64,000 bases of DNA from a virus (taxonomy: Duplodnaviria; Heunggongvirae; Uroviricota; Caudoviricetes). The notes beneath the pieces are model-generated. The model was given only the letters and a program-made list of their open reading frames with translations, was not told the DNA's origin and searched no databases. The translations under genes and the position numbers were made by a program. Positions 1,119 to 39,352 of this stretch are shown in pieces; the stretch's first letter is position 1; each line of letters starts with the position of its first letter. The stretch covers positions 1 to 64,000 of IMG/VR virus record IMGVR_UViG_3300020048_000019; one strand, 5' to 3'.

Positions 1119-1342
1119 ACGAACGAATTCTAGAACTTGCTGAACAGGCTGAAACATGGAATGCCGATGGAGACAAGTGTGAGGTTGACTTGGAAAAGTT
1201 CGCCGAGTTGATTGTTCGGGAATGTGCTCGTGCTGTTGATAAGGTATACGAAGATGCTGAACCCGATCATGGGTGTTATGACTGGGCTACTTGGGCTGAA
1301 GGTGCAGATGTTTTGAAACATTTCGGAGTAGAAGATGTTTAA
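1115..1342 (+). CDS. hypothetical small protein, tandem paralog 2
   Basis: ATGA overlap with paralog 1. Shares the MNERIxEL, KFAELIVxECA and HFGVE blocks. Confidence 0.45.
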   Translation: MNERILELAEQAETWNADGDKCEVDLEKFAELIVRECARAVDKVYEDAEPDHGCYDWATWAEGADVLKHFGVEDV

Positions 1343-2240
1343 AAAAGAATTGAAAAAGTATGTAGAGACTTCGGGCCTTGTAAACATGAAAGAGGCCGGC
1401 GAAGGCATATATGTACTCAAGTACAAGAAGAAGGTGTTTTATGACAACCTGTGGAACGAGTACATTGCTGAATGTCGTGGATCAATTGTGGACCGGGATT
1501 TTAACCTAGTTACATATCCATTCACAAAGATCTACAACTACGGTATTGAGAAGGAAGCACCAGTACTGGCCGCAAATACTCCAGTAACTGCATTTCGTAA
1601 AGTCAACGGCTTTATGGTTGCTTGTACTTGGTACAAAGGAGACATCCTTGTGTCTACTACCGGTAGCACTGACAGCCTATATGTTAACATGGCCAAGGAA
1701 ATGATGCTAACACATCAAAGCTGGGCCGCCTGGCAATTGGCGTTTAACCGCAGTGACATGGACAACCTAACAGTGATGTTTGAGTGTGTTCACCCCGATG
1801 ACCCACATATCGTACCTGAAAAGGCTGGTATGTATGTACTAGGATATCGTGAAAACATTTGGGGTTCTAAAGTAGGACATCACCGTTCTATTCTAGAAGG
1901 AATGGCAATTGGTTTCAATTGCCATGTACCAGAACATTACTCTACTACTGTGGGCAACCTAGTAGAAGCTACCAAGAATGTCCGTCACGAAGGATTTGTA
2001 TTCTATACTGCGGATGGTGTAAGTGCCAAGATCAAGAGCCCTTACTACTTGACTTCAAAGTGGGTTGCTCGCAATCCACGTACAGACAAGTTGGTAGACT
2101 TGAACAAAGACATCAAGCATAATCTAGACGAAGAATACTATCCACTAGTGGATGCTATCCGTGCTAACATTGTTGAGTATACTGCTATGGACGAGCAAGC
2201 TCGTTTATCGTGGGTGCGTAACTATTTGGAGGCTGTATGA
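1335..2240 (+). CDS. putative ATP-dependent RNA/DNA ligase-like nucleotidyltransferase (Rnl-like)
   Basis: Candidate covalent nucleotidyltransferase motifs: I (RKVNGF, KxNG), IV (HEGFVFY, EGxV) and V (AKIKSPYY, KxK). ATGTTTAA overlap with the upstream gene. Confidence 0.4.
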   Translation: MFKKELKKYVETSGLVNMKEAGEGIYVLKYKKKVFYDNLWNEYIAECRGSIVDRDFNLVTYPFTKIYNYGIEKEAPVLAANTPVTAFRKVNGFMVACTWYKGDILVSTTGSTDSLYVNMAKEMMLTHQSWAAWQLAFNRSDMDNLTVMFECVHPDDPHIVPEKAGMYVLGYRENIWGSKVGHHRSILEGMAIGFNCHVPEHYSTTVGNLVEATKNVRHEGFVFYTADGVSAKIKSPYYLTSKWVARNPRTDKLVDLNKDIKHNLDEEYYPLVDAIRANIVEYTAMDEQARLSWVRNYLEAV

Positions 2241-2412
2241 AAGATGAAAGTCATCTGCCCGTAGCAGAACAAAGTCTTGTGTTCCGTTTGCGCAAGCGAG
2301 CCGAGATTCGCCGAAACATCAAGGATCGCAAAAGTGTGCAAGAAGGTGCCAAGGATCGTATTGCAGATTTGCTAGAAGAAGCTGCTGATGAGATTGAACG
2401 TTTATCTAAGTA
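2237..2412 (+). CDS. hypothetical small charged/coiled-coil-like protein (58 aa)
   Basis: ATGA overlap with the ligase-like gene stop. Not in the ORF track (<60 aa). Its 3' end converges on the minus-strand gene 2402..3568. Confidence 0.25.
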
Positions 2413-3568
2413 AAATCTCTTTTACCCTTGCAAGATCAATATTTTGCAAGGGTAATTCTTTTCCGTCCACTCTGCCATTATTCCAGAGGCGTACCGAAAG
2501 TTCAAAGTTGTCAACCAACTCATTGACAATACGATGCCTAAAAGTAGTCCACAAGTGATTAAAGTTATGCTCTAGAACTGGCTGCATCTCTTGATGCATT
2601 AGACGCAGTTCACTATCACTCATGGCGCACAAGCGTTGCGTTTGATCTGCGATAGCTTGCAAGCGTTGGTCAGGATCTTGGATAGTATCATAACTTTCAT
2701 CAATCCATTGATCAAATGTTTGAAAGCCATAGCTTTTCAAATACGCAAGATTGCCAGGTGCTGCCGCTAGCATAAACGGGCGTTGTGCCACAATAGGTTT
2801 GAATATTTTTTCTGTTAGGTGCAACTTGTTGTAATAAAACACAGTTTCGGTAACTATGTGCCATAGTCCTGATTTCCACAGATCAAATTCTTGATGGCCA
2901 AAGTCTGCACTTAAACTTCCCGTCGTGTTGTCCTTGTCGAGTATCAAAGACTGGTCCAAGTTCTGCGCAATCAGCTCACGTGCAGGAACACTGAGCCTGG
3001 TGTCGGGACTGGCAATTTCTTGTTGCCAGGTGCCGTATTCTGTATGCCCTAGATGCAAACTAACATGTCCTTGGTCAAGTAAATTTTGTTTGGATAGTCT
3101 GGCCACTAAATTTAGGCGATAACTTCGATCGTTTGTGTGTAAACGATTCATGGTAATGTACGGCCTGGTCCAGTCAACGTCTTGATCGAGGTGCCTGGCA
3201 TCCCGATACCAGTCTAACGCAGCAAATCCATGAAAGAAATAGTACCAATCTAGGTACTGATTTTCTTTAAGCAGATGTTGTTTTAACGCCGACTGCTCAC
3301 TGTTGGCCAACACTTTGAATTCACTAAAAAAATGTGTAAATGTGCAATCGTAAACACTTTTGCTGTTGATAGGTTCTTGATCAAAAAAATAGCAAATGGG
3401 ACTTTTAAGCAAGGGGCGGTTGCTTCGCCCCCTGAAAGGCAGGTATCGGCCGTACCCAAGATCAACTGCATCTACTGATCCAAACTGCCAATACATAACA
3501 TCATGGACGCCCAGTGGTTTTAGTAGATGCTGGTGTAAGACATAGTAAAAATTTTCAATGGAACACAT
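2402..3568 (-). CDS. fucosyltransferase-like (GT10-like) glycosyltransferase, paralog 1 of 5
   Basis: C-terminal block ETVFYYNKLHLTEKIFKPI..PFML.AAPGNLAYLKSYGFQTF..ESYD is shared with four other ORFs. It resembles the alpha-1,3-FucT motif FENS..DYITEK. ATG start confirmed (cat at 3566-3568). Confidence 0.5.
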   Translation of the reverse strand: MCSIENFYYVLHQHLLKPLGVHDVMYWQFGSVDAVDLGYGRYLPFRGRSNRPLLKSPICYFFDQEPINSKSVYDCTFTHFFSEFKVLANSEQSALKQHLLKENQYLDWYYFFHGFAALDWYRDARHLDQDVDWTRPYITMNRLHTNDRSYRLNLVARLSKQNLLDQGHVSLHLGHTEYGTWQQEIASPDTRLSVPARELIAQNLDQSLILDKDNTTGSLSADFGHQEFDLWKSGLWHIVTETVFYYNKLHLTEKIFKPIVAQRPFMLAAAPGNLAYLKSYGFQTFDQWIDESYDTIQDPDQRLQAIADQTQRLCAMSDSELRLMHQEMQPVLEHNFNHLWTTFRHRIVNELVDNFELSVRLWNNGRVDGKELPLQNIDLARVKEILLR

Positions 3569-3642
3569 AGCAGATCTTGTATTTAATCAAGCTAATACTA
3601 GAGTAGTACATTCAATGACCCTGAACTGTGTAGGGTTTCTGC

Positions 3643-3671
3643 TTGGCAGAAATTTTGTAATTTGCTATAAT
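3643..3671 (+). promoter_or_regulatory. sigma70-like promoter TTGGCA-N17-TATAAT (TTTGCTATAAT)
   Basis: Read directly. Lies upstream of a small ORF starting at 3702. Confidence 0.4.
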
Positions 3672-3701
3672 AAACACTTGTTAACGCAAAAGGAACCTGT
3701 A

Positions 3702-3869
3702 ATGAGCAAGATGAATGAACTAGACCAAGATATCCAGTACTTGCTGGCCGAAGGTAAGAATCCAGTTCAGGTGGCTTTGGCCTTGGAGATTCCTGTGAGC
3801 TGGGTCTACGAAAGCAGCCAGGATCACGCAGACGAAGACTGTGGTCCTTTTGCAACAATCAACAGTTGA
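3702..3869 (+). CDS. hypothetical small protein (55 aa, MSKMNELDQ...)
   Basis: In-frame ATG after the promoter and a purine-rich RBS. The longer ORF 3558..3869 in the track probably over-extends upstream. Confidence 0.3.
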   Translation: MSKMNELDQDIQYLLAEGKNPVQVALALEIPVSWVYESSQDHADEDCGPFATINS

Positions 3870-3893
3870 CCAATAAATTGCAAAGCCTTATAA
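3865..3893 (+). promoter_or_regulatory. sigma70-like promoter TTGACC-N17-TATAAT, -10 embedded in the palindrome aagccttataattaaggctt
   Basis: Read directly. Lies 45 nt upstream of the cobS start. Confidence 0.45.
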
Positions 3894-3938
3894 TTAAGGC
3901 TTACTAAACAAGTTTTGTATTTTTTGAAAGGTAATTAA

Positions 3939-5021
3939 ATGTCTGAAACACGCACCGTTAGTTCTGTCCAGGCCCGCAAAAGTCTGTTGTCTGCATTCAA
4001 AGTCAAGCGTCCTGTGTTCCTGTGGGGCCCTCCTGGTATTGGCAAAAGCGAACTGGTTGAAGGTATCACTGCCGAAATGGGCGGCTTGATGATTGACTTG
4101 CGACTGGGTCAGATGGAACCCACTGACATTCGTGGTATTCCGTTTTACAACAAGGACAAGAATGTGATGGAGTATGCTCCTCCTATCGACTTGCCTGATG
4201 AAGAAACTGCGGCACAGTATCCTATCGTGGTGCTGTTCTTGGATGAGATGAACGCGGCACCTGCGTCTGTGCAATCAGCCGCCTACCAGCTGATCTTGAA
4301 TCGTCGAGTAGGTAAGTATAAACTGCCTGACAATGTTGTGATGGTTGCTGCTGGTAACCGTGAAAGCGACAAAGGTGTTACTTACCGCATGCCAACTCCG
4401 CTGGCAAACCGCTTTATTCACCAAGAGATGAAGGTGGACTTTGCATCCTGGCAAGAGTGGGCAGTGCAACACAATGTCCACAAAGACGTTGTGGGTTACT
4501 TGAGTTTTGCCAAGCAGGACCTGTATGATTTTGATGCCAAGAGCTCAAGCCGTGCATTTGCCACACCGCGTACCTGGAGCTTTGTGAGTGAGCTGCTGGA
4601 CGAAGGTGGCGACGACGACACCATGACCAACCTGATTGCAGGTACAGTTGGAGAAGGCCTTGCTGTAAAGTTCATGGCACACCGCAAGATTGCAGGTCGT
4701 ATGCCTAACCCAACAGACATCTTGAAGGGCAAGGTCAAGGACCTGAACGTGAAAGAAGTCAGTGCCATGTACAGCTTGGTGATCTCCATGTGCTACGAAC
4801 TCAAGGCGCAGGTGGCAGACAAGCCAGTTGACAAAGAGTTCCACGAAATGGCTGACAACTTCTTTGGCTACATGATGAAGAACTTTGAGACTGAACTGGT
4901 TGTGATGGGTGCTCGTATTGCGCTTACCACATACAACCTTCCGTTCCAGCCTACCAAGCTCAAGAACTTTGACGAGTTCCATCAGCGCTTTGGTAAGTAT
5001 ATCCTGCAAGCAAGTGCTTGA
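3939..5021 (+). CDS. cobS: CobS-like / MoxR-family AAA+ ATPase (cyanophage cobS-type)
   Basis: Walker A LWGPPGIGKSEL and Walker B VLFLDEMNAA. Overall MoxR/CobS architecture. Followed by a strong intrinsic terminator. Confidence 0.7.
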   Translation: MSETRTVSSVQARKSLLSAFKVKRPVFLWGPPGIGKSELVEGITAEMGGLMIDLRLGQMEPTDIRGIPFYNKDKNVMEYAPPIDLPDEETAAQYPIVVLFLDEMNAAPASVQSAAYQLILNRRVGKYKLPDNVVMVAAGNRESDKGVTYRMPTPLANRFIHQEMKVDFASWQEWAVQHNVHKDVVGYLSFAKQDLYDFDAKSSSRAFATPRTWSFVSELLDEGGDDDTMTNLIAGTVGEGLAVKFMAHRKIAGRMPNPTDILKGKVKDLNVKEVSAMYSLVISMCYELKAQVADKPVDKEFHEMADNFFGYMMKNFETELVVMGARIALTTYNLPFQPTKLKNFDEFHQRFGKYILQASA

Positions 5022-5033
5022 TAGGCAACAACT

Positions 5034-5056
5034 AAAGGGGCTTTGGCCCCTTTTTC
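5034..5056 (+). terminator. rho-independent terminator: aaaGGGGCtttgGCCCCttttt
   Basis: 5-bp GC stem extended by A:T pairs, 4-nt loop, T5 run, immediately after the cobS stop. Confidence 0.6.
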
Positions 5057-5073
5057 TATATACGGAGCAGAAC

Positions 5074-5313
5074 ATGGGCTGGATAGTATATTCCAAGAAG
5101 AATCATGAACTTTTGAGATACTATGATACTGAATCAAAAGCGCAGGCACAGGTAACCGGACATAATAAGAAAGCACTTTGGTCTGTGTTGAGTCGCCCTA
5201 ACAGTGTAAAAGAAGAATGGGCCTATTGTGAGTGGAATGAATACGAAGAAATATTCAAACAATATTACCAACAACAAAAACCTTACATGTTACAGCGAAG
5301 CAGTTATAGATGA
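5074..5313 (+). CDS. hypothetical small protein (79 aa)
   Basis: First ATG after the terminator, GGAG RBS. The longer track ORF 4909..5313 overlaps cobS and the terminator and is unlikely to be real. Confidence 0.3.
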   Translation: MGWIVYSKKNHELLRYYDTESKAQAQVTGHNKKALWSVLSRPNSVKEEWAYCEWNEYEEIFKQYYQQQKPYMLQRSSYR

Positions 5314-5648
5314 GATACCAAGTTATAAAAATGGACAAGCGACATGCCTACTACGGCAGTTTTCGCTATATACTAGAGTTCTCTAAAAGCACTTGGTCAG
5401 GCACTGGCGTGTTGGATTTTGATCGTGCTAGGCGTTGGATGAACCAGACCTGGGGCTGGAGTCAGGATGTTGATACCCGACAAAATCTAGTTAATCGCCA
5501 GGCTGATCTTACTAATACCGCAGTTCAAGAACAAGACATTAACAGGCATTGGGCATACTCTGTAGAATATAAACAATATCGTATCTACTTGAAAAATGAC
5601 AAAGAACTAAACTGGTTTTTGCTAAGTCATCCAGCAACTCAACTATGA
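5310..5648 (+). CDS. hypothetical protein (112 aa)
   Basis: ORF with ATGA overlaps at both ends. Confidence 0.4.
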   Translation: MRYQVIKMDKRHAYYGSFRYILEFSKSTWSGTGVLDFDRARRWMNQTWGWSQDVDTRQNLVNRQADLTNTAVQEQDINRHWAYSVEYKQYRIYLKNDKELNWFLLSHPATQL

Positions 5649-7144
5649 AAATTGTGTTATTGTCTGTTCCGTATTGTGAGCCTTTTCCTATGGTTGCTCC
5701 AGTATTGCTTAGTGCCTGTTTGAATCGGTCCGGGATTTCTGCGGTAGGAATCGATTTTAATATAGCTTTTTTAAAAGAATTTTCTGATCAGCCCTGGTTC
5801 TCTGATTTTAAAATTATGCTGTGCATGGGGCACATTTTCTCTTCCAAATTTGAGCGCAAGGTGTTCAAGGATGTTTATCGTTTTACGCGAAACTTCCTCC
5901 AACAAGTACATCGAGACTATCAACCCGAATGGGTCGGACTAAGCATTTTTACTTCCGAGAGTTTGGACTTTGGGTTGATCATGAGTTATATGTTGAGACG
6001 GCATTGGCCAAATACACGCATTATTGCCGGTGGTAAAGGATTAGAAGTCACACATAACGACCAAGTAAAACACTATAATATCTGGATCGACAACGGTATT
6101 GCCGACACAGTTATTGTCGGGGACGCTGAAGCTGAAGTAATCAATACCATACGTGAGAACAAGACTGGACTAATACAGGCCACACAACAAACCAAACAGG
6201 ACCTTGACGATATACCTGTCCCTGAATGGAGCAGTTATGACCTACTCCAGTATTCTAATCAAGATCTTGATCAAGAAGCCTATATGACTGTAACTGGCAG
6301 CAAGGGCTGCGTCCGTAAATGTACATTCTGTGATGTTGGAGATTTTTGGCCTGATTTCATTTATCGAGATCCAATCAAGGTTGCCAACGAAATAATTCAC
6401 AATTATCACAGTACTGGCATTCGAAATTTTGAGTTCACGGACAATTTGATAAACGGTAGTATTTCAAACTATCGCACAATGAATCAACGATTGGTTGAGG
6501 TTATTCCGGGAAAAATCTCATATAATGGTTTTGCAATTTTTCGTGGGAAAGAACAGATGCCAATCCAAGATTTTCGATTGGCTGCGCAGGCTGGTTGTAA
6601 GTTATGGGCAGTTGGGGTTGAAAGTGGTAGCGAACGAGTTCGCTGGGCCATGAAGAAAAAGTTTAGCAATAATGATATTGACTGGAGTGTTAACGCATTA
6701 CATTCCAATGGCATCGCGCATGCTTGGTTACTCATGGTGGGGTATCCGAGTGAAACTGAATCAGATTTTCAAGAGACCAAGGCACTGCTTCGACGATACG
6801 CTCACCTGGCTCCGAATCGAATGATACAGTTGAATATTACTCCTACATTTTCTTTGCTGAATAATAGTCCGTTATTGAAGCAATCAGAACTAGCAGTTGA
6901 ATATGGCCTCGACCGTCACGCCACTTGGACTAATGACAAATTCTGGACCAGCACAGTTTATGTGGACAACGATTATCCAACCAGAAGTCGCTGGTGGAAG
7001 GAACTAGTATCTCTTGCACTTGAACTTGGTTATAGTTTTAAATCAACGGCCATGATCGACAAATACTCTCAAGAGATTACTAACCTAGACAGGGTTTACA
7101 ATGAAACACACCGCAAAGTTTTTACTATCCGTTCAGGTCAATAA
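5645..7144 (+). CDS. B12-binding (class B) radical SAM enzyme
   Basis: N-terminal Rossmann-like B12-binding-type region followed by TGSKGCVRKCTFCDVG (CxxxCxxC), then the usual radical-SAM core length. ATGA overlap with the upstream gene. Confidence 0.6.
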   Translation: MKIVLLSVPYCEPFPMVAPVLLSACLNRSGISAVGIDFNIAFLKEFSDQPWFSDFKIMLCMGHIFSSKFERKVFKDVYRFTRNFLQQVHRDYQPEWVGLSIFTSESLDFGLIMSYMLRRHWPNTRIIAGGKGLEVTHNDQVKHYNIWIDNGIADTVIVGDAEAEVINTIRENKTGLIQATQQTKQDLDDIPVPEWSSYDLLQYSNQDLDQEAYMTVTGSKGCVRKCTFCDVGDFWPDFIYRDPIKVANEIIHNYHSTGIRNFEFTDNLINGSISNYRTMNQRLVEVIPGKISYNGFAIFRGKEQMPIQDFRLAAQAGCKLWAVGVESGSERVRWAMKKKFSNNDIDWSVNALHSNGIAHAWLLMVGYPSETESDFQETKALLRRYAHLAPNRMIQLNITPTFSLLNNSPLLKQSELAVEYGLDRHATWTNDKFWTSTVYVDNDYPTRSRWWKELVSLALELGYSFKSTAMIDKYSQEITNLDRVYNETHRKVFTIRSGQ

Positions 7145-7508
7145 AGTTGATGTAGACATTGGATATACTGTTACTCCGGGTAGTCGCAGTTGGCAGCAAG
7201 ATGAATTAATCTGGCATGAATGGGAATATAATCCAAAATTGATCTTTGTGGCACAAGTTAATGCTATCAAAGAACTGGAGGGGCAAAGTCATATTATTGT
7301 GTCTAACTTGCAGGCCAATCAGATTCCACTAAATCAAATTGATTGTTTTGGTGTTTATAAAAGAACTGATACCAACCAAGTAGTGCCAGACGCATATGGA
7401 TATATGAGCTGGCAAGGTACGTATACATTTAAAATCAGATTCTCGCCGCAAATCCATAATTATATTACATACTTTTTAAAAGTTTGCAGTCATGAAAGTC
7501 ATTGTTAA
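7101..7508 (+). CDS. hypothetical protein
   Basis: ORF only. Overlaps the preceding gene by 44 nt, so the start is uncertain. Confidence 0.3.
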   Translation: MKHTAKFLLSVQVNKVDVDIGYTVTPGSRSWQQDELIWHEWEYNPKLIFVAQVNAIKELEGQSHIIVSNLQANQIPLNQIDCFGVYKRTDTNQVVPDAYGYMSWQGTYTFKIRFSPQIHNYITYFLKVCSHESHC

Positions 7509-7773
7509 AAAAAATTTGATTATATTCAGAAGCCCCGAAGAGTGGCGACCGATAATGGATCAGTTGATACTAGAGCACGGTATCAAGATCAGTATCTCTT
7601 GGGTCATGCGTCGCGAGTTAGGATTTACTGTGCGAACCCACCGCGCCTTGATCCCAAATGACCATATCAAACCTGGGCGGCCTGATATGCATTATGAAGA
7701 TCAGGTTTGTCTTGACTTCTTTAACGAAAGTACACAGAGTTGGTTTGTGTTGCGCTACTTGAATCTTAACTAG
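7492..7773 (+). CDS. hypothetical protein
   Basis: ORF only. Confidence 0.3.
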   Translation: MKVIVKKNLIIFRSPEEWRPIMDQLILEHGIKISISWVMRRELGFTVRTHRALIPNDHIKPGRPDMHYEDQVCLDFFNESTQSWFVLRYLNLN

Positions 7774-7779
7774 TCTAAT

Positions 7780-8130
7780 ATGGATAGAAAACTTCTAATA
7801 GAAAAATATAAATCAAAGATAGCGTCAACCCGTGGCAGAGTTGATATTAATGGTAATGCCATTGAGATGCGATTAACCGAAGATCAATGGTGTCAGTTAT
7901 GGGAAGAAGCTGAAGTTTTTCCCAACAGAAACTATGTTATTAGCCGAAAAAACGATACTGGACATTATGAACTTGGAAACGTATATATCCAACATAATCT
8001 ACATAATCTAACCGAAGCATTAACTGATAATAGTGAGCTTGAATATAAGATAACTGAATATGCTATTAAAACTGGTTATAAAAGACGCATTGTAAAGGCC
8101 ATGCTCAAACGAGGGGAACTTGAGTTGTAA
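7780..8130 (+). CDS. hypothetical protein, possible His-Me-finger/HNH-like (GHYELGNVYIQHNLHN)
   Basis: ATG confirmed. The H/N-rich C-terminal block resembles HNH endonucleases loosely. Followed by a terminator. Confidence 0.4.
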   Translation: MDRKLLIEKYKSKIASTRGRVDINGNAIEMRLTEDQWCQLWEEAEVFPNRNYVISRKNDTGHYELGNVYIQHNLHNLTEALTDNSELEYKITEYAIKTGYKRRIVKAMLKRGELEL

Positions 8131-8149
8131 ATTGCAAGATCTTGTAGCA

Positions 8150-8172
8150 AGCCCGCAAATCGCGGGTTTTTT
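8150..8172 (+). terminator. rho-independent terminator: aGCCCGCaaatcGCGGGtttttt
   Basis: GC stem-loop plus T6 directly after the 7780..8130 stop. Confidence 0.55.
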
Positions 8173-8333
8173 GCTGACTGCAGGAGCGCTATCATGTTGA
8201 TTTATATAGGGTTTTGATCGGCTAAAATCCATGCTTTTGCTACTGTAGGCGCTGACACAAGATCTTCACAAAGAATTGCTGTAAAACGTTCAAGACCCAA
8301 AAACTGTGTACTATTTGCTACAGAACAAAATAG

Positions 8334-8362
8334 TTGACCAATATTTCCCATTCTGCTATAAT
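8334..8362 (+). promoter_or_regulatory. sigma70-like promoter TTGACC-N17-TATAAT (CTGCTATAAT)
   Basis: Read directly. 30 nt upstream of the ORF at 8393, which has an aacaggag RBS. Confidence 0.55.
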
Positions 8363-8392
8363 TAACACTTAAACAGCAAACAGGAGTCAGCG

Positions 8393-8647
8393 ATGATTGT
8401 TAAAACAAGTGATGTGATTCGCAGCTACGATTTTAAACCCATGCTGGGCCGTGAGGATTGCTTTGTTGAAGGCATGGTCATTGAGACTACTAGTGAGCCG
8501 GGCTACCAGGCCTACAAAATTCGAGTAACCAAAGACTCCTGGAACGAAGGTAACGAGACGGGCCGATTTGGCAAGATCATCTTTGTACCCGTGGCCGTGG
8601 CCTACAATGATTATCCAGGCCGTGTGATGAATTTGAGCCGCATCTAA
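8393..8647 (+). CDS. hypothetical protein (84 aa)
   Basis: ORF with promoter and RBS. Confidence 0.5.
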   Translation: MIVKTSDVIRSYDFKPMLGREDCFVEGMVIETTSEPGYQAYKIRVTKDSWNEGNETGRFGKIIFVPVAVAYNDYPGRVMNLSRI

Positions 8648-8652
8648 AACGG

Positions 8653-8681
8653 TTGACCAAAATTGCCCAATTTGCTATAAT
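8653..8681 (+). promoter_or_regulatory. sigma70-like promoter, second copy of the ~55-bp element at 5-60
   Basis: TTGACC(8653-8658)-N17-TATAAT(8676-8681). About 96% identical to positions 5-60, including the downstream acaggag RBS. Confidence 0.55.
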
Positions 8682-8713
8682 ATACACATAGCAAAGCAAA
8701 ACAGGAGCCCAAA

Positions 8714-8938
8714 ATGACCAAGCAATTCGTACAAGTTAGCGCCCACAAAGATAGCAACAACTTTGCTCACTGTAGCAATCTGAGCCTGATGGCAGATCAG
8801 AAACTGACTGCAACACAGGCCCTGCGTTACTTGCAAGTCATGGCCGATGAGTATGCACTAAACGGGTACACAATTGAGTGGATTCGTGAAAATTTTGATT
8901 CGGTCTACGAAGAAATGTACGGCGAATTGTTTGCCTAA
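8714..8938 (+). CDS. hypothetical protein (74 aa)
   Basis: ORF after promoter and RBS. Confidence 0.5.
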   Translation: MTKQFVQVSAHKDSNNFAHCSNLSLMADQKLTATQALRYLQVMADEYALNGYTIEWIRENFDSVYEEMYGELFA

Positions 8939-8950
8939 AAAGGATTTGAA

Positions 8951-9133
8951 ATGACTTACACTGTTCAAGAACTTGCCCTGCAATACGCTGAGAAACTGAC
9001 CGCATACCACGAGGCCATGCAAAGCGACTGGAGCGACAAAGAGCGTGCAGTTCGACAGGCCCGTGACGAACTGTATCTTGCACAGAATGTTTTGAACGCG
9101 GCTTGTGAGCGGGACGCAGAACTTTTGGCTTGA
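8951..9133 (+). CDS. hypothetical small protein (60 aa)
   Basis: ORF with a gga RBS. Confidence 0.35.
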   Translation: MTYTVQELALQYAEKLTAYHEAMQSDWSDKERAVRQARDELYLAQNVLNAACERDAELLA

Positions 9134-9158
9134 CCATTAAATCAACATCAGCTATAAT
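9130..9158 (+). promoter_or_regulatory. sigma70-like promoter TTGACC-N17-TATAAT (AGCTATAAT)
   Basis: Read directly. Overlaps the stop of the preceding ORF and precedes the VWA gene. Confidence 0.5.
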
Positions 9159-9183
9159 ACTCACATAGCAACAAGGAATATAC

Positions 9184-10455
9184 ATGACATCCACTACACA
9201 GACCAAAGACGAAAAGAAAAAGTTTGCCAACCTGTTGGGTGCAACAGACCCCAAAGTTGATCGCGAAGTACGAGAAAAGCTGATCACAGCCCGTGTGGGC
9301 CTGCTGCTTCGCGCCAGCTTCTTTGGCAACTTGGCAACTCGGCTGAAGCTGGTGAACGCAGATGAATGGTGCGGTACTGCTGCAACAGACGGTCGTCACT
9401 TCTATTACAATTCGCGATTTATTCAAATGCTGCGTCCCAAAGAAATTGAGTTCTTGTTTGGACATGAAGTCTTGCATTGTGTTTATGATCACTTTGGTCG
9501 TCGTGGTTCACGCGATCCGCAGATGTTCAACATTGCCAATGACTTTTGCGTGAATGCCGACTTGGTCAAACACCGTGTGGGCGAAAAGATTACCACAGTG
9601 CCTTGCCTGTACGACAAAAAGTACGATGGCATGAGCTCAGAAGAAATCTACGACAAGCTGATGGAGAACGTGCAAAAGATCTCCATGAGCGACTTGCTGG
9701 ATCAACTGATTGACGAGCATCTGGATGGTGACGATGACAGTTCGGGTGAAGGTCAGGAAGGTGAAGGCAAGGGCAAGCCCCGGCTCAGTGCTGCAGATCG
9801 TCAAGCCATCAAGGACGAGATCAAAGAAGCCATGTTGGCTGCTGCTCAGACCACAGACGGTGCAGGCAACATCCCAGCTGGTGTGATGCGCATGATCAAG
9901 GAACTCACAGAGCCACAAATGAACTGGCGTGAGCTGCTTCGTATGAATCTAGAAAGCACTATCAAGAGTGACTACACCTGGATGCGTCCAAGCCGTCGAG
10001 GCTGGCACATGGATGCAGTAATGCCAGGTCGTAAAAACGACGAGATGATTGACATTGCTATTGCAATTGATACATCTGGTTCGATTGGCGAAAAAATGTT
10101 GAAGGACTTCTTGGGCGAAGTACAAGGTATCATGGACTCGTTCCCGGCATACAAGATTCACATTGTGAGCTTTGATACTGACACCTACAATCCTGTACAA
10201 TACGACAGTGACAACTTGGACAGTATCATGGACTATGAGCCAGCTGGTGGCGGTGGTACTGACTTTGATGCCATCTATCGTTACTTGAAGGACGAAGACA
10301 TCCAACCGCGGCGCTTGGTGGTGTTTACAGACGGCTATCCGTTTGGTTCATGGGGTGATGAAAACTACTGTGACGCCACTTGGATCTTGCACGGTACCAC
10401 CAGCATTGTTCCGCCCTGGGGCACATATGCCTACTACGAGGAAAGCAGCAAATGA
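9184..10455 (+). CDS. VWA-domain protein with N-terminal HExxH metallopeptidase-like region (DUF2201-like partner of MoxR ATPases)
   Basis: HEVLHCVYDH (HExxH). MIDAS-type motif IAIDTSGSIG and VVFTDGYP of a von Willebrand A fold. Confidence 0.6.
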   Translation: MTSTTQTKDEKKKFANLLGATDPKVDREVREKLITARVGLLLRASFFGNLATRLKLVNADEWCGTAATDGRHFYYNSRFIQMLRPKEIEFLFGHEVLHCVYDHFGRRGSRDPQMFNIANDFCVNADLVKHRVGEKITTVPCLYDKKYDGMSSEEIYDKLMENVQKISMSDLLDQLIDEHLDGDDDSSGEGQEGEGKGKPRLSAADRQAIKDEIKEAMLAAAQTTDGAGNIPAGVMRMIKELTEPQMNWRELLRMNLESTIKSDYTWMRPSRRGWHMDAVMPGRKNDEMIDIAIAIDTSGSIGEKMLKDFLGEVQGIMDSFPAYKIHIVSFDTDTYNPVQYDSDNLDSIMDYEPAGGGGTDFDAIYRYLKDEDIQPRRLVVFTDGYPFGSWGDENYCDATWILHGTTSIVPPWGTYAYYEESSK

Positions 10456-10637
10456 TCGAAATGCGTTGGTTTGTACCCGTAGAAGGCGAGAAGGTGTTAC
10501 AGTATCGCCAGCAGGTTGACGCTACTGTTCGAGCAGGCATGTGGAATCAAGAGTCAACCAGTGCCACTGCCAACATGCAATGGAGCCAGTGGCACGATGT
10601 GCCCTTGGTAGCCGAACGTGATCCTAGTTATCCTTGA
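10452..10637 (+). CDS. hypothetical small protein (61 aa)
   Basis: ATGA overlap with the VWA gene. The track ORF 10380..10637 extends upstream into the VWA gene. Confidence 0.3.
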   Translation: MIEMRWFVPVEGEKVLQYRQQVDATVRAGMWNQESTSATANMQWSQWHDVPLVAERDPSYP

Positions 10638-10646
10638 AAGGTTGTT

Positions 10647-10946
10647 ATGAAAATTAACTTGGCTGCAGATACTGCATCTTCAAAAGAACAACAAAAATTT
10701 GTTTATTGGCTTGCTTCTGAAATGGCCAAAGAATACAAAATTCACTCAAGTGTTGTCATGCATTTTATTAATGAAGGCAACGATGACTTTCGTAACTGGA
10801 TTAAACAAACGCATAATGTCAATGTTGGTCGATTTTTGTTTAGAGACGATACACAGACATACGGATCAGGATTTGATTTTGAAGATAGTCCTGAGCTAAC
10901 TGCATTGTTACTGAAAGTTCCTACTGGCAAACTAGTGTTAAAGTGA
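10647..10946 (+). CDS. hypothetical protein (99 aa)
   Basis: ORF with ATG and an RBS-like aaaggttgtt. Confidence 0.4.
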   Translation: MKINLAADTASSKEQQKFVYWLASEMAKEYKIHSSVVMHFINEGNDDFRNWIKQTHNVNVGRFLFRDDTQTYGSGFDFEDSPELTALLLKVPTGKLVLK

Positions 10947-10953
10947 GGATGAT

Positions 10954-11130
10954 ATGATTAAAATGTTTACAATGTGGTTGATACTGAGTGTGGCGATTGG
11001 TTTTGGTATCATAGCAGTTCGCCAACTTACCGGAAAACAACAATGGCAGTTGACAAAGCTGCTGGCCTATGCTATAATGTGTTCACTGGCAGCGGTGGTG
11101 CTCTTGGGCATCATTGTTGTTTTATTCTAA
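10954..11130 (+). CDS. small hydrophobic (two-TM-like) membrane peptide, 59 aa
   Basis: Strong RBS GAGGA 5 nt upstream. Contains the internal perfect promoter at 11050-11078. Confidence 0.4.
   Translation: MIKMFTMWLILSVAIGFGIIAVRQLTGKQQWQLTKLLAYAIMCSLAAVVLLGIIVVLF
11050..11078 (+). promoter_or_regulatory. perfect-consensus promoter TTGACA-N17-TATAAT (TGCTATAAT) inside a small membrane-peptide ORF
   Basis: Read directly. Would drive the 28-aa peptide ORF (11140) and the SPFH gene (11227). Confidence 0.5.
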
Positions 11131-11139
11131 AGGAATTTT

Positions 11140-11226
11140 ATGATCAATGACTTTTGGCTCAGGCCTTTGTATTTTGCTCTTGGTTTCACTGTGTGTTTTT
11201 ATCTTTTTTCTACTGGAGTTATTTAA
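11140..11226 (+). CDS. tiny hydrophobic peptide (28 aa)
   Basis: AGGA RBS. Its stop is immediately followed by the ATG of the next gene. Confidence 0.2.
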   Translation: MINDFWLRPLYFALGFTVCFYLFSTGVI

Positions 11227-12024
11227 ATGAATCGTTCTATCAAACTGTCTATCGTTGCTGCTGCTGTTGCATTGACCTCGGCTTGCACTCGAATTGAAAC
11301 TGGCGAAGTTGGTGTGCGTGTAGGCTTTGACAAACAAGTACAAAGCGGCGAGCTCTTGCCTGGTAGCTTTAACCAAAGTCTTGTGGGCACTATCCTTACA
11401 TTTCCAATCAAGGACGTTAACGTGGTTCTGGAAAATATGACTCCGGTGGCCAGCGACAACTCCACAATGAAAGACTTGGATGCTGTGGTTGTTTACAACA
11501 TCAACCCGCAACAAGTTGCCGAACTGTATTCAACCAAGAACAAGAGCTTTCACGCAGAGTTCAAAGGTGACACTTATGTGATGTACAACTATATTGTTCA
11601 GACTGCTCGTAATGCTATCTACAAAGCAGCACGTAAGTATGAGGCCCTGGACATGGCAGACAAGCGAAGTGAAATGGAAAAGTTCATTCAGGATGAAATC
11701 GTCAAGAACTTGACTGAAGAAAAGCTGGACGGTAGTATCACTATCAGCCAAGTGATGATTCGTAATGTGTTGCCTAGCGACACGGTAGTTGAAAGTGCCA
11801 ATGCCCTGGTCCGTTCCAAGAATGAACTCAAGCAGAAAGAAGTTGAAGTCAAGACTGCTGAAGCTGAATCGCGTCGTATGGCAGCACTGGCCAACAACTC
11901 CGGAGCAAGTATTGCATTCATGCAAGCACAGGCTATGTTGAACGTGAGTGAAGGTATCAAGAACGGCAAGGTTCAGACCATTGTTGTTCCAAGTAACTTC
12001 AACGCACTCATGATGCCCAAGTAA
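11227..12024 (+). CDS. SPFH/band-7 (prohibitin-like) domain lipoprotein
   Basis: Signal peptide with lipobox LTSAC. Body pattern EVGVRVGFDK..., DAVVVY.I and AEAESRR is consistent with an SPFH fold. GGAG RBS. Confidence 0.45.
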   Translation: MNRSIKLSIVAAAVALTSACTRIETGEVGVRVGFDKQVQSGELLPGSFNQSLVGTILTFPIKDVNVVLENMTPVASDNSTMKDLDAVVVYNINPQQVAELYSTKNKSFHAEFKGDTYVMYNYIVQTARNAIYKAARKYEALDMADKRSEMEKFIQDEIVKNLTEEKLDGSITISQVMIRNVLPSDTVVESANALVRSKNELKQKEVEVKTAEAESRRMAALANNSGASIAFMQAQAMLNVSEGIKNGKVQTIVVPSNFNALMMPK

Positions 12025-14430: not shown

Positions 14431-15120
14431 ATGAATGTTACCCTTTTATCCTACAGTCAACCCACCGAAGAATTTAGATCTCAAGGAGTTGACGACGCAC
14501 AAGAACTTATCGCGTACTGTGCCCGTGTGTCCAATCCAGCCAACCAGTTCAACACTGAAACAAGTGAAAAGCTCATTCGGTACTTGGTCAAGCACCAACA
14601 CTGGAGCCCACTCGAAATGGTGTCAGCCTGCATGGAAATTGTTACCACACGAGACATTGCCCGACAGATACTGCGTCACAGAAGTTTCAGCTTCCAAGAG
14701 TTCAGTCAGCGATACGCTGATCCTACAGCTGAACTTGATGAAGCGTTTGTGCTACGTGAGTGTCGACTCCAGGACACCAAGAATAGACAGAACAGTGTAG
14801 AGCTAGACATGAACGACGAAGCTCAAAAGCTAATTGCTATTGAATGGGAACGTGCCCAGAAGCGTGTGTTGTTCAGTGTCAAGCAAGAGTATTCTTGGGC
14901 CATCAAGAACGGTATTGCCAAAGAACAAGCTCGGGCTGTGTTACCTGAGGGATTGACTGTTAGCCGAATGTACATGAACGGTACTATCCGATCATGGATC
15001 CACTATATCATGTTGCGCAAAGAAAACGGTACACAAAAAGAGCATGCTGATATTGCTCTTGCATGTGCTCAGGCCATTGCTGCAATTTTCCCAATGGCTA
15101 CCGATATGATTGCAAAATAA
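14431..15120 (+). CDS. thyX: flavin-dependent thymidylate synthase ThyX
   Basis: ThyX signature RHRSFSFQEFSQRY (RHRxxSxxxxSxR) and size of about 230 aa. Confidence 0.8.
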   Translation: MNVTLLSYSQPTEEFRSQGVDDAQELIAYCARVSNPANQFNTETSEKLIRYLVKHQHWSPLEMVSACMEIVTTRDIARQILRHRSFSFQEFSQRYADPTAELDEAFVLRECRLQDTKNRQNSVELDMNDEAQKLIAIEWERAQKRVLFSVKQEYSWAIKNGIAKEQARAVLPEGLTVSRMYMNGTIRSWIHYIMLRKENGTQKEHADIALACAQAIAAIFPMATDMIAK

Positions 15121-15479: not shown

Positions 15480-15735
15480 ATATGTAGACGCCGAAGTCAC
15501 ACTTCCGCCTCCAGTAAAGAAGCAGGTGTGGGACGGTGAGAAGTTTGTACCGATGACACTGTATAAAACAAAAGGCTGGCCAGGCATGGAAGCAGAGAAC
15601 TGGTTGCTTGAAACTTTTGGGCACCCAGGCACATACCGTGCTGGAAGATTTTGGGATTACAGTAGAGCCGGAGACTTCACGCTGATGGATGAAAAAGTTT
15701 ATACATGGTATCAAATGAAATGGAGTAAAAGATGA
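15460..15735 (+). CDS. hypothetical protein (91 aa)
   Basis: ORF only. Confidence 0.35.
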   Translation: MWEQKIEYVDAEVTLPPPVKKQVWDGEKFVPMTLYKTKGWPGMEAENWLLETFGHPGTYRAGRFWDYSRAGDFTLMDEKVYTWYQMKWSKR

Positions 15736-16706
15736 CAAAAATTTTAGTAACAGGTGGTCTAGGCCTGATTGGGCACAACGTTGTGCAGCGTTTGCAACAG
15801 CGAGGTGACGATGTTTCAATTATAGACAATCAGACAACATACGGTATTATACCGCGTGAAGAAATTGATTATCTAGTAGGCGAGAGGCTCAAGAAGATTG
15901 AAAAGTGTCATATCTATCATGATTACATTGAAAATGCAAGTCGTGTAGACGCTATTATGGATACAGAAAAACCTGAGATAATAGTACACATGGCCAGTTT
16001 TCCTAGACAAAAAGTTGTTAATGCGAATCCAGCAAACGGTTCGCGTGTGATGATGGAAGGCTTGATCAACATGTTGGAGAGTGCCAAAAAGCACAAGGTC
16101 GAGCGCTTTGTTTACATCAGTTCTAGCATGGTGTACGGAGACTTTGAAGATCAAGTGCTGGAAGATGACCCTTGTGCGCCACAAGGACAGTACGGCATCA
16201 TGAAACTGGCAGGAGAATGGTTGGTCAAAGATTATGCAAGAAAGACAGGCATGGAATATGTTATTATCCGTCCGTCGGCAGTATACGGGCCTTTGGACGT
16301 GGAAGATAGAGTTGTTGCAAAGTTTATGCTGGCTGCAATGCGTGGGCATACCCTTAAGGTCAACGGAGCGTCAGAAACCCTGGACTTTACCTATGTGGAT
16401 GACGCTGCAGATGGCATCGTGGCGGCTGCAACTCGAATCATGGCGAGAAATAATACTTACAACATCACTAAAAGTCACTCAGTTACACTACAAGAGGCCG
16501 CGGAAATGATCGTGGAGATTGTGGGATCGGGTTCCATCGAAGTACGCGACAAGGATGCAGACTTTCCTAGCCGCGGTGCTCTCAACATTGATCGTTCTAG
16601 AACTATTCTGGGATTTGATCCCAGGGTGGATGTGCATGAAGGATTTCAGAAGTACTATGAATGGTTGAGTACATCTACATACTGGCAAGCTCAAATAAAA
16701 CAATGA
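15732..16706 (+). CDS. NAD-dependent sugar-nucleotide epimerase/dehydratase (extended SDR)
   Basis: TGGLGLIGHNVV Rossmann motif and YGIMK (YxxxK) catalytic motif. ATGA overlap with the upstream gene. Confidence 0.7.
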   Translation: MTKILVTGGLGLIGHNVVQRLQQRGDDVSIIDNQTTYGIIPREEIDYLVGERLKKIEKCHIYHDYIENASRVDAIMDTEKPEIIVHMASFPRQKVVNANPANGSRVMMEGLINMLESAKKHKVERFVYISSSMVYGDFEDQVLEDDPCAPQGQYGIMKLAGEWLVKDYARKTGMEYVIIRPSAVYGPLDVEDRVVAKFMLAAMRGHTLKVNGASETLDFTYVDDAADGIVAAATRIMARNNTYNITKSHSVTLQEAAEMIVEIVGSGSIEVRDKDADFPSRGALNIDRSRTILGFDPRVDVHEGFQKYYEWLSTSTYWQAQIKQ

Positions 16707-17773
16707 AAATCCCATTTACAGGCATTCAGAGGCAGTATGTAAATCTTCGAGAGGAGATCCTGGATATCACTGATCAAGTGCTTGTTACAGGCCATCTCAT
16801 GAACGGGCCAAGGACCATGGCGTTTGAAGACTGGCTGGCCAACAAGAATCATGTGAAGTACGCTGTGACTTGTCACTCGGGCACACAGGCGCTGGAACTG
16901 ATTGCTAGCTTTCATCGGCAATACGGGTTCGGCGGTGCCACTCCTACTGTGCTGATTCCAGCCATGACCTATATTGCCACAGCCAATGCTTGGGTCAAAG
17001 CGGGCTGGAACATTCACATTGTGGACACCGACGGCTACGGTCTAATAGATCCCAAGAAGGTACCTCGTGACCTAGTGTTCCACGCTGTGTGTACTGTGGG
17101 ATTGTACGGTGCTGCATATAATCGCTGGTTCCCAAACGAAGGCAACTATGTCATGATCGAGGATGGTGCCCAACACTGGCTCTCCAATGATTGTAGACGC
17201 CACGGTGCTGCATGTGCTATTAGCTTTGATCCCACCAAGAACTTTGCTAACTATGGCAATGGCGGCGCTGTGGTTACAAACGATCGACAACTGTTAGACT
17301 TTGCACGAGACTGGCAAAGCAATGGTCGAGGCGGTGGTGATGCCTATTATGTGACCAACAGTCGCATGAGTGAAGTAGACTGTGCGCAAATGATGATCAA
17401 GGCACGCTATCTCAACGAATGGCAGGCTCGTCGTGAAACGATTGCTAGATACTGGATGGATCAATTAACCGACTTACCAATACGTTGCTTGATCGACAGC
17501 ACCAACGTAGACAAACACTGCTTTCACAAGTTTGTAATTGACATTGACAACAGAGATTCTGTTATGAATAAACTAGCTGATGCTGACATTTCTACCAAGA
17601 TTCACTACACGCGACCCCTGCACGAAGAACCTAGATATGTAAACACCCCAGGACCAGACATGATGAGTGCAGCAAGTAGTCTAGCTCGTCGTGGACTCAG
17701 CTTGCCCATCTACCCTGAGCTAACTGATACTGAAGTTGAGTTTATTGCTGATCAGGTACTAAAGAACGTTTGA
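16703..17773 (+). CDS. DegT/DnrJ/EryC1/StrS-family PLP-dependent sugar aminotransferase
   Basis: Start re-assigned to MKIPFTG (ATGA overlap with the epimerase stop). Block ISFDPTKNFANYGNGGAVVTND matches the DegT PLP-lysine region. Confidence 0.6.
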   Translation: MKIPFTGIQRQYVNLREEILDITDQVLVTGHLMNGPRTMAFEDWLANKNHVKYAVTCHSGTQALELIASFHRQYGFGGATPTVLIPAMTYIATANAWVKAGWNIHIVDTDGYGLIDPKKVPRDLVFHAVCTVGLYGAAYNRWFPNEGNYVMIEDGAQHWLSNDCRRHGAACAISFDPTKNFANYGNGGAVVTNDRQLLDFARDWQSNGRGGGDAYYVTNSRMSEVDCAQMMIKARYLNEWQARRETIARYWMDQLTDLPIRCLIDSTNVDKHCFHKFVIDIDNRDSVMNKLADADISTKIHYTRPLHEEPRYVNTPGPDMMSAASSLARRGLSLPIYPELTDTEVEFIADQVLKNV

Positions 17774-38759: not shown

Positions 38760-39352
38760 AATGCTCGTTGATCTTTCCATTGTTCAGCTTGGATTTCAGC
38801 TGGCTCAGTTGATTCTAATTCAGCAAATCGTTGTGTCAACTGGTCAATATTCAATATGTTCTTGGATGAATAAGGACTTTTTTTTGTGCGAGTAATCACT
38901 GATGGTATGTTCAACTGTTGACAAACCACTTCACTGCGCCCAATAAAGTCTTCAAACTTCAAGTAATGTCTATTTGTGTAGTGAGTTAATGCATGGTGCG
39001 CACGGTGCCAGTTTTTGTGCCAGTTGTGCTTTTGTTCGAATATATCTAGGTCTGCTACAAATGGCTGTCCATTTCCGCTATATCTAAACCATTCATTGTA
39101 CTGTTCGCAGATCATTGCACTGACAATTTCACTAAACAAATCATTACGAGTCACGTGTATAACCTGCAGGTCAGGCTGATCGGGCAACTGCAACTGTGCG
39201 TCATGACTGTGATACACCATGGATTCTGCAGTGGCGGGCAAAGGTTCTTGATTGCTCATGACCAGTCGCATGCCAAGGCTTTGTGCAATAGTTAGTGCTA
39301 CAAAGATACTGCCGCTACGCCCAGCGCTGCATACTAGGTATTTTACTGTCAT
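38756..39352 (-). CDS. Stf0-like sulfotransferase (PAPS-dependent)
   Basis: 5'-PSB-like VCSAGRSGSIFVA and 3'-PB-like HVTRNDLFSEIVSA (RxDxxxS). Size 198 aa. Confidence 0.45.
   Translation of the reverse strand: MTVKYLVCSAGRSGSIFVALTIAQSLGMRLVMSNQEPLPATAESMVYHSHDAQLQLPDQPDLQVIHVTRNDLFSEIVSAMICEQYNEWFRYSGNGQPFVADLDIFEQKHNWHKNWHRAHHALTHYTNRHYLKFEDFIGRSEVVCQQLNIPSVITRTKKSPYSSKNILNIDQLTQRFAELESTEPAEIQAEQWKDQRAL

Follow-up and report, generated by a model that had tools for sequence, protein, structure and literature searches.

The first 64,000 nucleotides of the IMG/VR virus record IMGVR_UViG_3300020048_000019 (Caudoviricetes), hereafter the window, carry at positions 3939..10455 the genes of an AAA+ ATPase, of a radical S-adenosylmethionine (SAM) enzyme and of a protein in which a metallopeptidase domain is joined to a von Willebrand factor A (VWA) domain. 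We consider it likely that this interval is made of two independent units: an ATPase-VWA pair and a mobile cassette, formed by the radical-SAM gene and a small partner gene (p135), that was inserted between the members of the pair. The three open reading frames (ORFs) are on the + strand, exactly where a first-pass annotation made from the letters alone had put them: 3939..5021 (360 aa), 5645..7144 (499 aa) and 9184..10455 (423 aa). That annotation had seen in them either a cobalamin-linked module, with a CobS-like ATPase serving the phage's own B12-dependent enzyme, or a MoxR-VWA chaperone pair. Our results correct it: the ATPase gene should not be annotated as a cobalamin gene, nor the three genes as a single pathway.

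Distribution and insertion site of the cassette

We examined 23 distinct radical-SAM loci (L numbers are used where loci have to be told apart). It is only in the lineage of the window (the window itself, L004-6, L010 and L017) that the ATPase and VWA genes flank the radical-SAM gene; identities there are 62% or more for the radical-SAM protein and 84-86% for the ATPase. The other 19 loci have radical-SAM proteins of 26-53% identity, and neither an ATPase nor a VWA gene was found in their flanks of 3-10 kb on each side. The pair is found, for its part, in many genomes that lack the enzyme. Among cultured phage records, tblastn matched the ATPase in 859 and the VWA protein in 802, with the same counts for both in Escherichia (216/216), Pseudomonas (112/112), Klebsiella (70/70), Erwinia (35/35) and Pectobacterium (26/26). 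No homologue of the 499-aa radical-SAM protein was detected in 50,697 cultured phage records (tblastn, E <= 1e-5).

The same picture emerges at closer range. We collected 80 IMG/VR loci whose ATPase is 75-88% identical to that of the window, 70 of which are long enough for a judgement. In 69 of them the VWA gene is located downstream of the ATPase gene, across a gap of 65 nt to 6.5 kb, and this gap holds an orthologue of the radical-SAM gene in just one of the 69 (L067, from the same contig as L017). The first-pass annotation had suggested looking for the three genes together across cyanophage genomes; they do not travel together, since the pair occurs in about 800 cultured phages without the enzyme, the enzyme in 19 loci without the pair in the flanks of 3-10 kb, and all three in a single one of the 69 close relatives of the pair.

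The usual layout in the close relatives is ATPase - p112 - p93 - VWA, in which p112 (5310..5648 in the window, + strand) and p93 (7492..7773, + strand), its usual neighbour, are small proteins specific to the lineage, present in 60 and 52 of 83 related loci, respectively. The p112 gene directly abuts that of p93 in L039, L040, L053 and L055. In the window, where the pair is split by 4.2 kb, the cassette sits exactly at this junction, and start and stop codons overlap on both sides of it; the stop codon of p112 overlaps the start codon of the radical-SAM gene at 5645..5648. Different insertions occupy the same junction in L052, L069, L078 and L097. The GC content is 0.37-0.44 in the gap versus about 0.50 in the ATPase and VWA genes. 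We found no significant repeats at the flanks of the cassette, and no mechanism of mobility can be named for this reason.

The second gene of the cassette, p135 (7101..7508, + strand, 135 aa), lies immediately downstream of the radical-SAM gene and overlaps it. An ORF of this type (about 120-139 aa) directly follows the radical-SAM gene in all 14 loci of the clade that is at least 43% identical, with a spacing that ranges from a 64-nt overlap to a 23-nt gap. The two genes would form a translationally coupled mobile cargo that landed at the p112/p93 junction.

The ATPase-VWA pair

At the core of the pair is the ATPase (3939..5021). Its Pfam scores are marginally above the cut-offs (AAA, 29.3 bits; AAA_3, 28.2 for a cut-off of 27; AAA_5, 24.1 for a cut-off of 22), its match to PHROG 1297 ('ATPase') reaches 1.3e-97, and its top PDB sequence match is the AAA module of midasin. 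The Walker A motif (GPPGIGKS; P32, G33, K36, S37), the Walker B motif (D102, E103) and N140/R141 are invariant in five phages, from the window to an N4-like one; the ATPase of PA5oct is 52.7% identical to that of the window. The Pfam AAA matches stop at residue 160, and a C-terminal region of about 180 residues extends beyond them. PADLOC returned only weak matches of AAA type (DolB, IetA).

The partner (9184..10455) scores 139.5 bits with DUF2201_N (cut-off 23.2; 2.1e-40), 54.2 bits with the VWA-like DUF2201 (cut-off 26.4; 2.1e-14) and 1.6e-105 with PHROG 1314. The VWA protein with an N-terminal HExxH motif and a DUF2201-like architecture that had been read from the sequence is thus borne out by profiles far above their cut-offs. 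The HExxH motif is HEVLH at residues 94-98. Its conservation had been named as the point on which this reading could fall: H94, E95, H98 and H103, together with D296, S298, S300, T359 and D383 of the metal-ion-dependent adhesion site (MIDAS), are invariant in six phages, down to an N4-like homologue with 26% identity. The PA5oct homologue is 46% identical, and the minigluzincin MJ1213 is matched weakly (E 0.04). PHROG 1314 is labelled 'HNH endonuclease', a name copied in many GenBank phage records. As the domains detected in the protein are DUF2201_N and VWA, with no HNH among them, this label looks like a propagated mis-annotation.

Besides jumbo phages of the PA5oct, Rak2/121Q and Atu_ph07 types, the family of the pair includes N4-like Schitoviridae, rV5-like phages, cyanophage S-TIM5 and Thermus phages. 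The distance between the two genes varies: they are neighbours in Phosso, an N4-like Achromobacter phage has two small ORFs between them, and PA5oct has three such ORFs together with a 498-aa protein. The latter protein is similar in size to the radical-SAM enzyme and was considered as a counterpart of it; it is a Vsr/MTES_1575-type endonuclease-like protein, which ruled this out. Neither p112 nor p93 could be detected in PA5oct, Phosso or N4-like phages; they are thus not general components of the pair.

The first-pass annotation had looked to cyanophages for comparison; our results point elsewhere. The ATPase, the VWA protein and a structural protein (44553..46373) of the window are nearest to jumbo phages of the type of Pseudomonas phage PA5oct and Sinorhizobium phage Phosso, the structural protein matching a virion or baseplate protein of these phages, and some radical-SAM homologues are carried by contigs of 338-365 kb. 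On these grounds we assign the window to a jumbo phage, uncultured and related to the 'group 2.2' phages, and not to a T4-like cyanophage. A 177-kb contig on record encodes an identical radical-SAM protein. No DNA-level relative of 3939..10455 was found by megablast among the 50,697 cultured phage records, and the lineage is known from metagenomes only.

The matching distributions of the two genes, their conserved order and their invariant residues support the chaperone-pair reading of the first-pass annotation. The ATPase-VWA pair is a published and widespread phage module: the same combination of MoxR ATPase and metallopeptidase-vWA protein has been described in group 2.2 jumbo phages, with a proposed role in virion assembly accompanied by peptidolytic processing (Iyer et al. 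2021, Viruses 13:63; PMC7824862).

The radical-SAM enzyme and its partner

The cargo enzyme (5645..7144) matches Pfam Radical_SAM with 57 bits (cut-off 29.5), and its CX3CX2C motif (C222/C226/C229) is invariant in 18 homologues. The Pfam B12-binding model (PF02310) gives 16.9 bits for the window protein (E 0.0059), below its cut-off of 32.1; the model is matched independently by 14 of the 18 family members at E <= 0.01 (best 2e-5) and is the only Pfam family besides Radical_SAM that recurs among them. An AlphaFold (AF2) model built from the 18 homologues has a mean predicted local distance difference test score (pLDDT) of 83.7. In a Foldseek search, its top four matches were TsrM entries, two of them with cobalamin (best E 5.5e-16, template modelling (TM) score 0.56-0.58, 489 columns), followed by MiaB, MgmA, OxsB, AprD4, TokK and CysS; RimO matches too. 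MgmA was also the top match of the family profile (4e-11).

The closest NCBIfam models are those of B12-dependent enzymes, namely PhpK P-methyltransferases, C-methyltransferases of ribosomally synthesised peptides with post-translational modifications (RiPPs), ladderane-type lipid B12/radical-SAM proteins, the MCR glutamine C-methyltransferase, BchE and BzaD. Among these, the matches to PhpK and to the RiPP C-methyltransferases are the best, all scores being far below the cut-offs (e.g., 79.5 bits versus 600), and some of the alignments to B12 radical-SAM models extend into N-terminal residues 72-143. The architecture is of class-B type, in keeping with the earlier call: the radical-SAM domain is clear, the cobalamin-binding type of fold is present with TsrM as its best match, and the B12-binding profile stays below threshold. 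We also considered a methylthiotransferase of the MiaB/RimO type and rejected it, as C25 is the only invariant cysteine of the N-terminal domain (which therefore has no three-cysteine set) and no Pfam TRAM match was found.

We found 853 metagenomic homologues of the enzyme. The best 120 of these 853 are all at least 46% identical, and contigs of 100-365 kb carry some of the homologues. When 185,579 bacterial and archaeal species, with one genome each, were searched by motif scan, one weak relative emerged, in an Elusimicrobia metagenome-assembled genome (24% identity). Because this was the single relative in the scan, the B12-type family is, at the level of species genomes, essentially restricted to viral contigs. 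Our literature search returned nothing on phage B12 radical-SAM enzymes. What is new here is the radical-SAM/p135 cassette, as a phage-restricted radical-SAM family of B12 type, together with the radical-SAM-rich cargo of its lineage.

The p135 proteins are 19-56% identical in their alignment and keep a C-terminal motif, YGYMxxxGTYxFKIR. The AF2 model of p135 (pLDDT 76) is a beta-sandwich followed by a C-terminal helix. We found no Pfam, PHROG or PADLOC match for p135 and no significant neighbour of its fold in PDB or BFVD; the best hits were a CBM60-like module (E 0.05, TM 0.35) and uncharacterised phage proteins in BFVD (8e-3). PADLOC likewise had no match for the radical-SAM protein or the VWA protein. 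Some distant radical-SAM clusters, described below, encode 178-aa partners, and a relationship between these and p135 was assessed with hhalign. The probability was 0.7%, which is not significant, so we claim no homology between them.

Radical-SAM genes in the gap and elsewhere in the window

The space between the ATPase and VWA genes holds other radical-SAM genes in the relatives. Across the 69 loci, we counted 11 radical-SAM-like ORFs in 128 kb of gap versus nine in 806 kb of flanks, i.e., a 7.7-fold enrichment (binomial p 1.6e-5, with no correction for phylogeny). Those in the gap belong to at least five families and are spread over nine loci (L047, L067, L069, L075, L092, L096, L097, L101 and L105); the other cargo in the gap is diverse and unrelated. 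Since the test ignores phylogeny and compares a hot spot with conserved flanks, and since the other cargo is diverse, we read the enrichment mainly as that of a cargo hot spot in a lineage that is rich in radical-SAM genes. The space inside this MoxR-VWA pair would then be a site that repeatedly captures such genes.

The window itself illustrates this richness. Seven further radical-SAM paralogues with the CX3CX2C motif lie in a tandem array of nine ORFs (27389..38780, - strand), adjoined by a Nol-like carbamoyltransferase gene (24563..26050). The seven match a profile built from the array ORFs and their phage homologues; Pfam Radical_SAM is found in five of them and a SPASM-type domain in three. 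The four that were scanned against NCBIfam match NF033640 ('twitch domain-containing radical SAM protein') with 270-383 bits (cut-off 170). Weak homologues of these paralogues occur in only five cultured phage records, and six other phage contigs (L011, L014, L015, L016, L018 and L019) carry homologues within 10 kb of their B12-type cassette. In a T4-like viral genome from the sea, 12 radical-SAM genes have been noted (Nishimura et al. 2017, PMC5332604).

A distant branch of the B12-type family (about 30% identity) is found in a conserved cluster on marine viral contigs (L023, L025, L026 and L029-L033; e.g., L031 6234..16619). This cluster encodes Mre11-like and Rad50-like proteins, two B12-type enzymes each beside a protein of about 178 aa, a SPASM radical-SAM protein, an SDR-like protein and a small radical-SAM protein. 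In L022 (9989..11983), a 664-aa protein joins the B12-type enzyme to a member of the 178-aa family, and L097 (13030..15030) encodes a similar protein of 666 aa.

Transcription signals and neighbouring genes

Promoters and terminators were called as pattern or consensus matches only. Six sites of the form TTGAC(C/A)-N17-TATAAT, starting at 7, 3866, 8334, 8653, 9130 and 11050, are all on the + strand, and none was found outside the first 11 kb or so of the 64-kb window. Five of the six have the TG of an extended -10 element, and the extended consensus of the six reads TTGACCAA...TGCTATAAT. Four of these sigma-70-like promoters, each matching 11 of 12 consensus positions, lie in or next to the interval, all on the + strand. 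The one at 3866..3894 (TTGACC-N17-TATAAT) is 45 nt upstream of the ATPase start and the one at 9130..9158 is 26 nt upstream of the VWA gene. The other two, both with an extended -10, precede small ORFs: 8334..8362 lies upstream of an 84-aa ORF (8393..8647) and 8653..8681 upstream of a 74-aa ORF (8714..8938). A hairpin resembling an intrinsic terminator (AAAGGGGC-TTTG-GCCCCTTT, followed by a T-rich tail) lies at 5034..5053 on the + strand, 13 nt past the ATPase stop codon; its 8-bp stem has five G-C pairs.

These sites suggest an early block read by the host RNA polymerase. The 'early block' of the first-pass annotation is plausible in this sense; its three genes do not form one module. The signals also fit with the ATPase and VWA genes being separate transcription units, each with its own host-type promoter-like site. 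No cobalamin riboswitch was found, and no Rfam family exceeded its gathering threshold in the window; a relaxed scan of 3400..11300 returned two sub-threshold matches (SmY and BSR0709), which we take as chance.

The remaining genes of the interval are small and on the + strand. A 79-aa ORF at 5074..5313 is called as a gene on an identical contig in ENA (L002 4732..4971). It is followed by p112, for which no Pfam or PHROG match was found. Beyond p93, a 116-aa ORF (7780..8130) matches PHROG 16521, a family of unknown function, at 7.4e-6; among the first 34 loci it was found only on L002 and L003, whose contigs are identical to the window.

Other auxiliary genes occur in the same + strand block (1335..2240, 11227..12024, 14431..15120 and 15732..17773); they encode an RNA ligase of T4 Rnl1 type, an SPFH/Band 7 protein, a ThyX thymidylate synthase, a nucleoside diphosphate (NDP)-sugar epimerase/dehydratase and a DegT-type aminotransferase. 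PADLOC gave no match for the Band_7 protein. A 388-aa ORF on the - strand (2402..3568) adjoins the ATPase gene in the relatives too and is conserved; it had no Pfam, PHROG or PADLOC match. Partial homologues of it (32-35% identity) occur near distant B12-type radical-SAM genes in L019, L023 and L024. Further away, a single ORF of 5023 aa (47170..62241, - strand) lies downstream of the structural-type genes.

Proposed roles and alternative explanations

By analogy with characterised MoxR-VWA systems, we infer a mechanism of remodelling and proteolysis for the pair: the VWA/MIDAS domain would dock a target protein, the ATPase ring would remodel it, and the fused HExxH peptidase would probably cleave it. 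The target could be a virion or a host protein, acted upon during assembly or host takeover. The radical-SAM enzyme most likely cleaves SAM at a [4Fe-4S] cluster and most likely uses cobalamin, held in its N-terminal Rossmann-like domain, to methylate an unactivated carbon; p135 would be a substrate adaptor or the substrate itself. Because AprD4, MiaB and RimO show that such a fold can work without B12, we infer cobalamin use and methyl transfer as likely. If the cobalamin dependence and the target were established, the cassette would be a case of virus-encoded B12-dependent radical chemistry, and replication of the phage would depend on host cobalamin.

Several points weigh against the two-unit reading or against the roles that we attach to it. 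Lacking a strong promoter of its own and being coupled in translation to p112 and p93, the cassette would be expressed from within the region of the pair. The 7.7-fold density of radical-SAM genes in the gap could mean a functional link and not a neutral hot spot. As for the pair, the role in virion assembly is a published proposal and not a result, and the only functional data that we found, the phenotype of phage Bas54 given below, point to counter-defence rather than assembly. As for the enzyme, the B12-binding score is under the curated cut-off in every family member scanned, including the best (E 2e-5), and the B12-independent MiaB, RimO and AprD4 share the fold and rank among the top structural matches.

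The alternative that survives best is a possible, if less probable, one: the pair would be a device for counter-defence or host takeover that remodels and cleaves a protein of host immunity or regulation early in infection. To overcome DS-28, a predicted defence system, the V5-like phage Bas54 requires its MoxR ATPase bas54_0063 (bioRxiv 10.1101/2025.11.20.689424), and a 'MoxR ATPase' of the V5-like phage rV5_ev146 belongs to the tblastn family of the window ATPase (28.8% identity, E 3e-30). Both genes of the pair lie behind host sigma-70-like promoters, in a block of small genes of early type, distant from the structural genes and in the opposite orientation. Promoters of early type are at least as compatible with counter-defence or host takeover as with assembly. 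However, bas54_0063 is a putative member of this family, and the preprint has a single ATPase phenotype and leaves the VWA partner unmentioned. The ATPase of PA5oct is annotated as detected by electrospray ionisation tandem mass spectrometry (ESI-MS/MS), which also speaks against this alternative, and neither PADLOC nor our other searches link the pair to a known defence or anti-defence family.

Somewhat less probable still is that the radical-SAM enzyme is independent of cobalamin, with an N-terminal domain that is vestigial or binds the substrate as in AprD4, and a chemistry other than methylation. The enzymes MiaB, RimO and AprD4, which work without cobalamin, rank with comparable E-values among the top structural matches; the B12-binding score of the window protein is about half of the Pfam cut-off, and the closest NCBIfam families all score far under theirs. 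Against this, the B12-binding model recurs in most members of the family as the sole Pfam family besides Radical_SAM, the four best fold matches are all TsrM, and the best sequence relatives are the B12-dependent methyltransferases PhpK, RiPP C-methyltransferases and MgmA. The N-terminal domain also lacks the set of three cysteines that holds the auxiliary cluster in methylthiotransferases.

The enrichment of radical-SAM genes in the gap could also reflect a functional coupling, in which the pair matures the many radical-SAM metalloenzymes of the phage by inserting their cofactors or by activation, hence the presence of such genes nearby. The cellular MoxR-VWA pairs NorQ/D, CoxD/E, CbbQ/O and RavA/ViaA mature metalloenzymes, and the window carries its seven further paralogues. 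We find this unlikely. In hundreds of phages with the pair, no radical-SAM gene was noticed (e.g., in the N4-like and rV5-like regions examined), radical-SAM genes of the same lineage can also be remote from the pair (at about 20 kb in the window and about 85 kb on the L022/L079 contig), and the conserved flanks, the diversity of the other cargo and the uncorrected phylogeny leave the enrichment readable as the mark of a cargo hot spot. A wider version of this idea is just as hard to favour: the uncultured freshwater jumbo phages of the lineage may carry a large, shuffled radical-SAM toolkit, with one B12-type enzyme and its beta-sandwich partner plus seven paralogues with an N-terminal twitch domain, for which the gap would be a preferred and functional landing site and the pair a maturation or activation factor of phage metalloenzymes. 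The B12-type cassette would, in such a toolkit, methylate a phage-specific macromolecule, e.g., a virion protein, a glycan or DNA.

Finally, the cobalamin-linked module of the first-pass annotation, in which the ATPase and the VWA protein would act like the CobS/CobT chelatase and supply or load cobalamin for the phage's own radical-SAM enzyme, is very improbable: CobS-CobT is likewise an AAA+ protein of MoxR class with a VWA partner, the three genes are co-oriented within 6.5 kb in the window lineage and the N-terminal domain of the enzyme is of B12-binding type, but family membership and distribution lead us to reject it, given the many phages that have the pair without the enzyme, the 19 loci that have the enzyme without the pair in the flanks of 3-10 kb, the near absence of the orthologue from the gap of close relatives, the peptidase domain of the VWA partner (unlike the chelatase-type architecture of CobT) and the lack of a cobalamin riboswitch in the window. 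In the ATPase, the P-loop alone (residues 18-49) is matched by PHROG 249, the family of cyanophage CobS, with an E of 1e-5, to be compared with 1e-97 for PHROG 1297. CobS and CobT models are absent from the NCBIfam results of the ATPase at E <= 0.01, which contain only weak P-loop matches to Hda and RFC (we take the library to include a CobS model), and no CobN was seen. Judged by these profile matches, the ATPase is a MoxR-family AAA+ protein and not CobS. The earlier label of 'cobS-type ATPase' holds for its AAA+/MoxR part, i.e., at the level of the superfamily only, and fails for its CobS part. We retain the reading of two independent units.

Comparison with known systems

The cargo enzyme resembles the class B radical-SAM enzymes TsrM, MgmA, Mmp10, PhpK, TokK, CysS, OxsB and those of PoyC type in having an N-terminal Rossmann-like domain of B12 type followed by a barrel with the CX3CX2C motif. 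It differs from the methyltransferases of this class by its partner, a beta-sandwich protein of about 125-135 aa without known relatives.

For the pair, the likeness to CobS-CobT and to the 'cobS' of cyanophages is one of class: CobS is of the same AAA+ superfamily and is likewise paired with a VWA protein. The partner in the window is, in contrast, a peptidase-VWA protein and not CobT, and it comes with no CobN that we could see.

The cellular MoxR-VWA systems are closer. ATP-driven remodelling of a client held by the MIDAS is the mechanism expected of them. RavA-ViaA, CbbQ-CbbO, NorQ-NorD and CoxD-CoxE share with the window a MoxR-class AAA+ gene that adjoins a VWA/MIDAS gene, as does the viral pair of ATV p618, a cited example of the MoxR-vWA combination (PMC7824862). 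The phage proteins differ from the cellular ones in two respects: the VWA protein has a fused HExxH peptidase domain (DUF2201_N), and the ATPase has its C-terminal region of about 180 residues outside the Pfam AAA matches.

The closest known system is the pair that Iyer et al. described in group 2.2 jumbo phages. The architecture is the same, a MoxR-type ATPase with a vWA protein that carries an N-terminal metallopeptidase domain, and the closest cultured homologues are of PA5oct type (52.7% and 46% identity for the ATPase and the VWA protein, respectively) and of Phosso/Atu_ph07/Rak2 type, with HExxH and MIDAS conserved. The window differs in that its pair is split by cargo and in that p112 and p93 normally intervene between the two genes in its lineage. 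The family also reaches further than group 2.2, to N4-like, rV5-like and S-TIM5-type phages.

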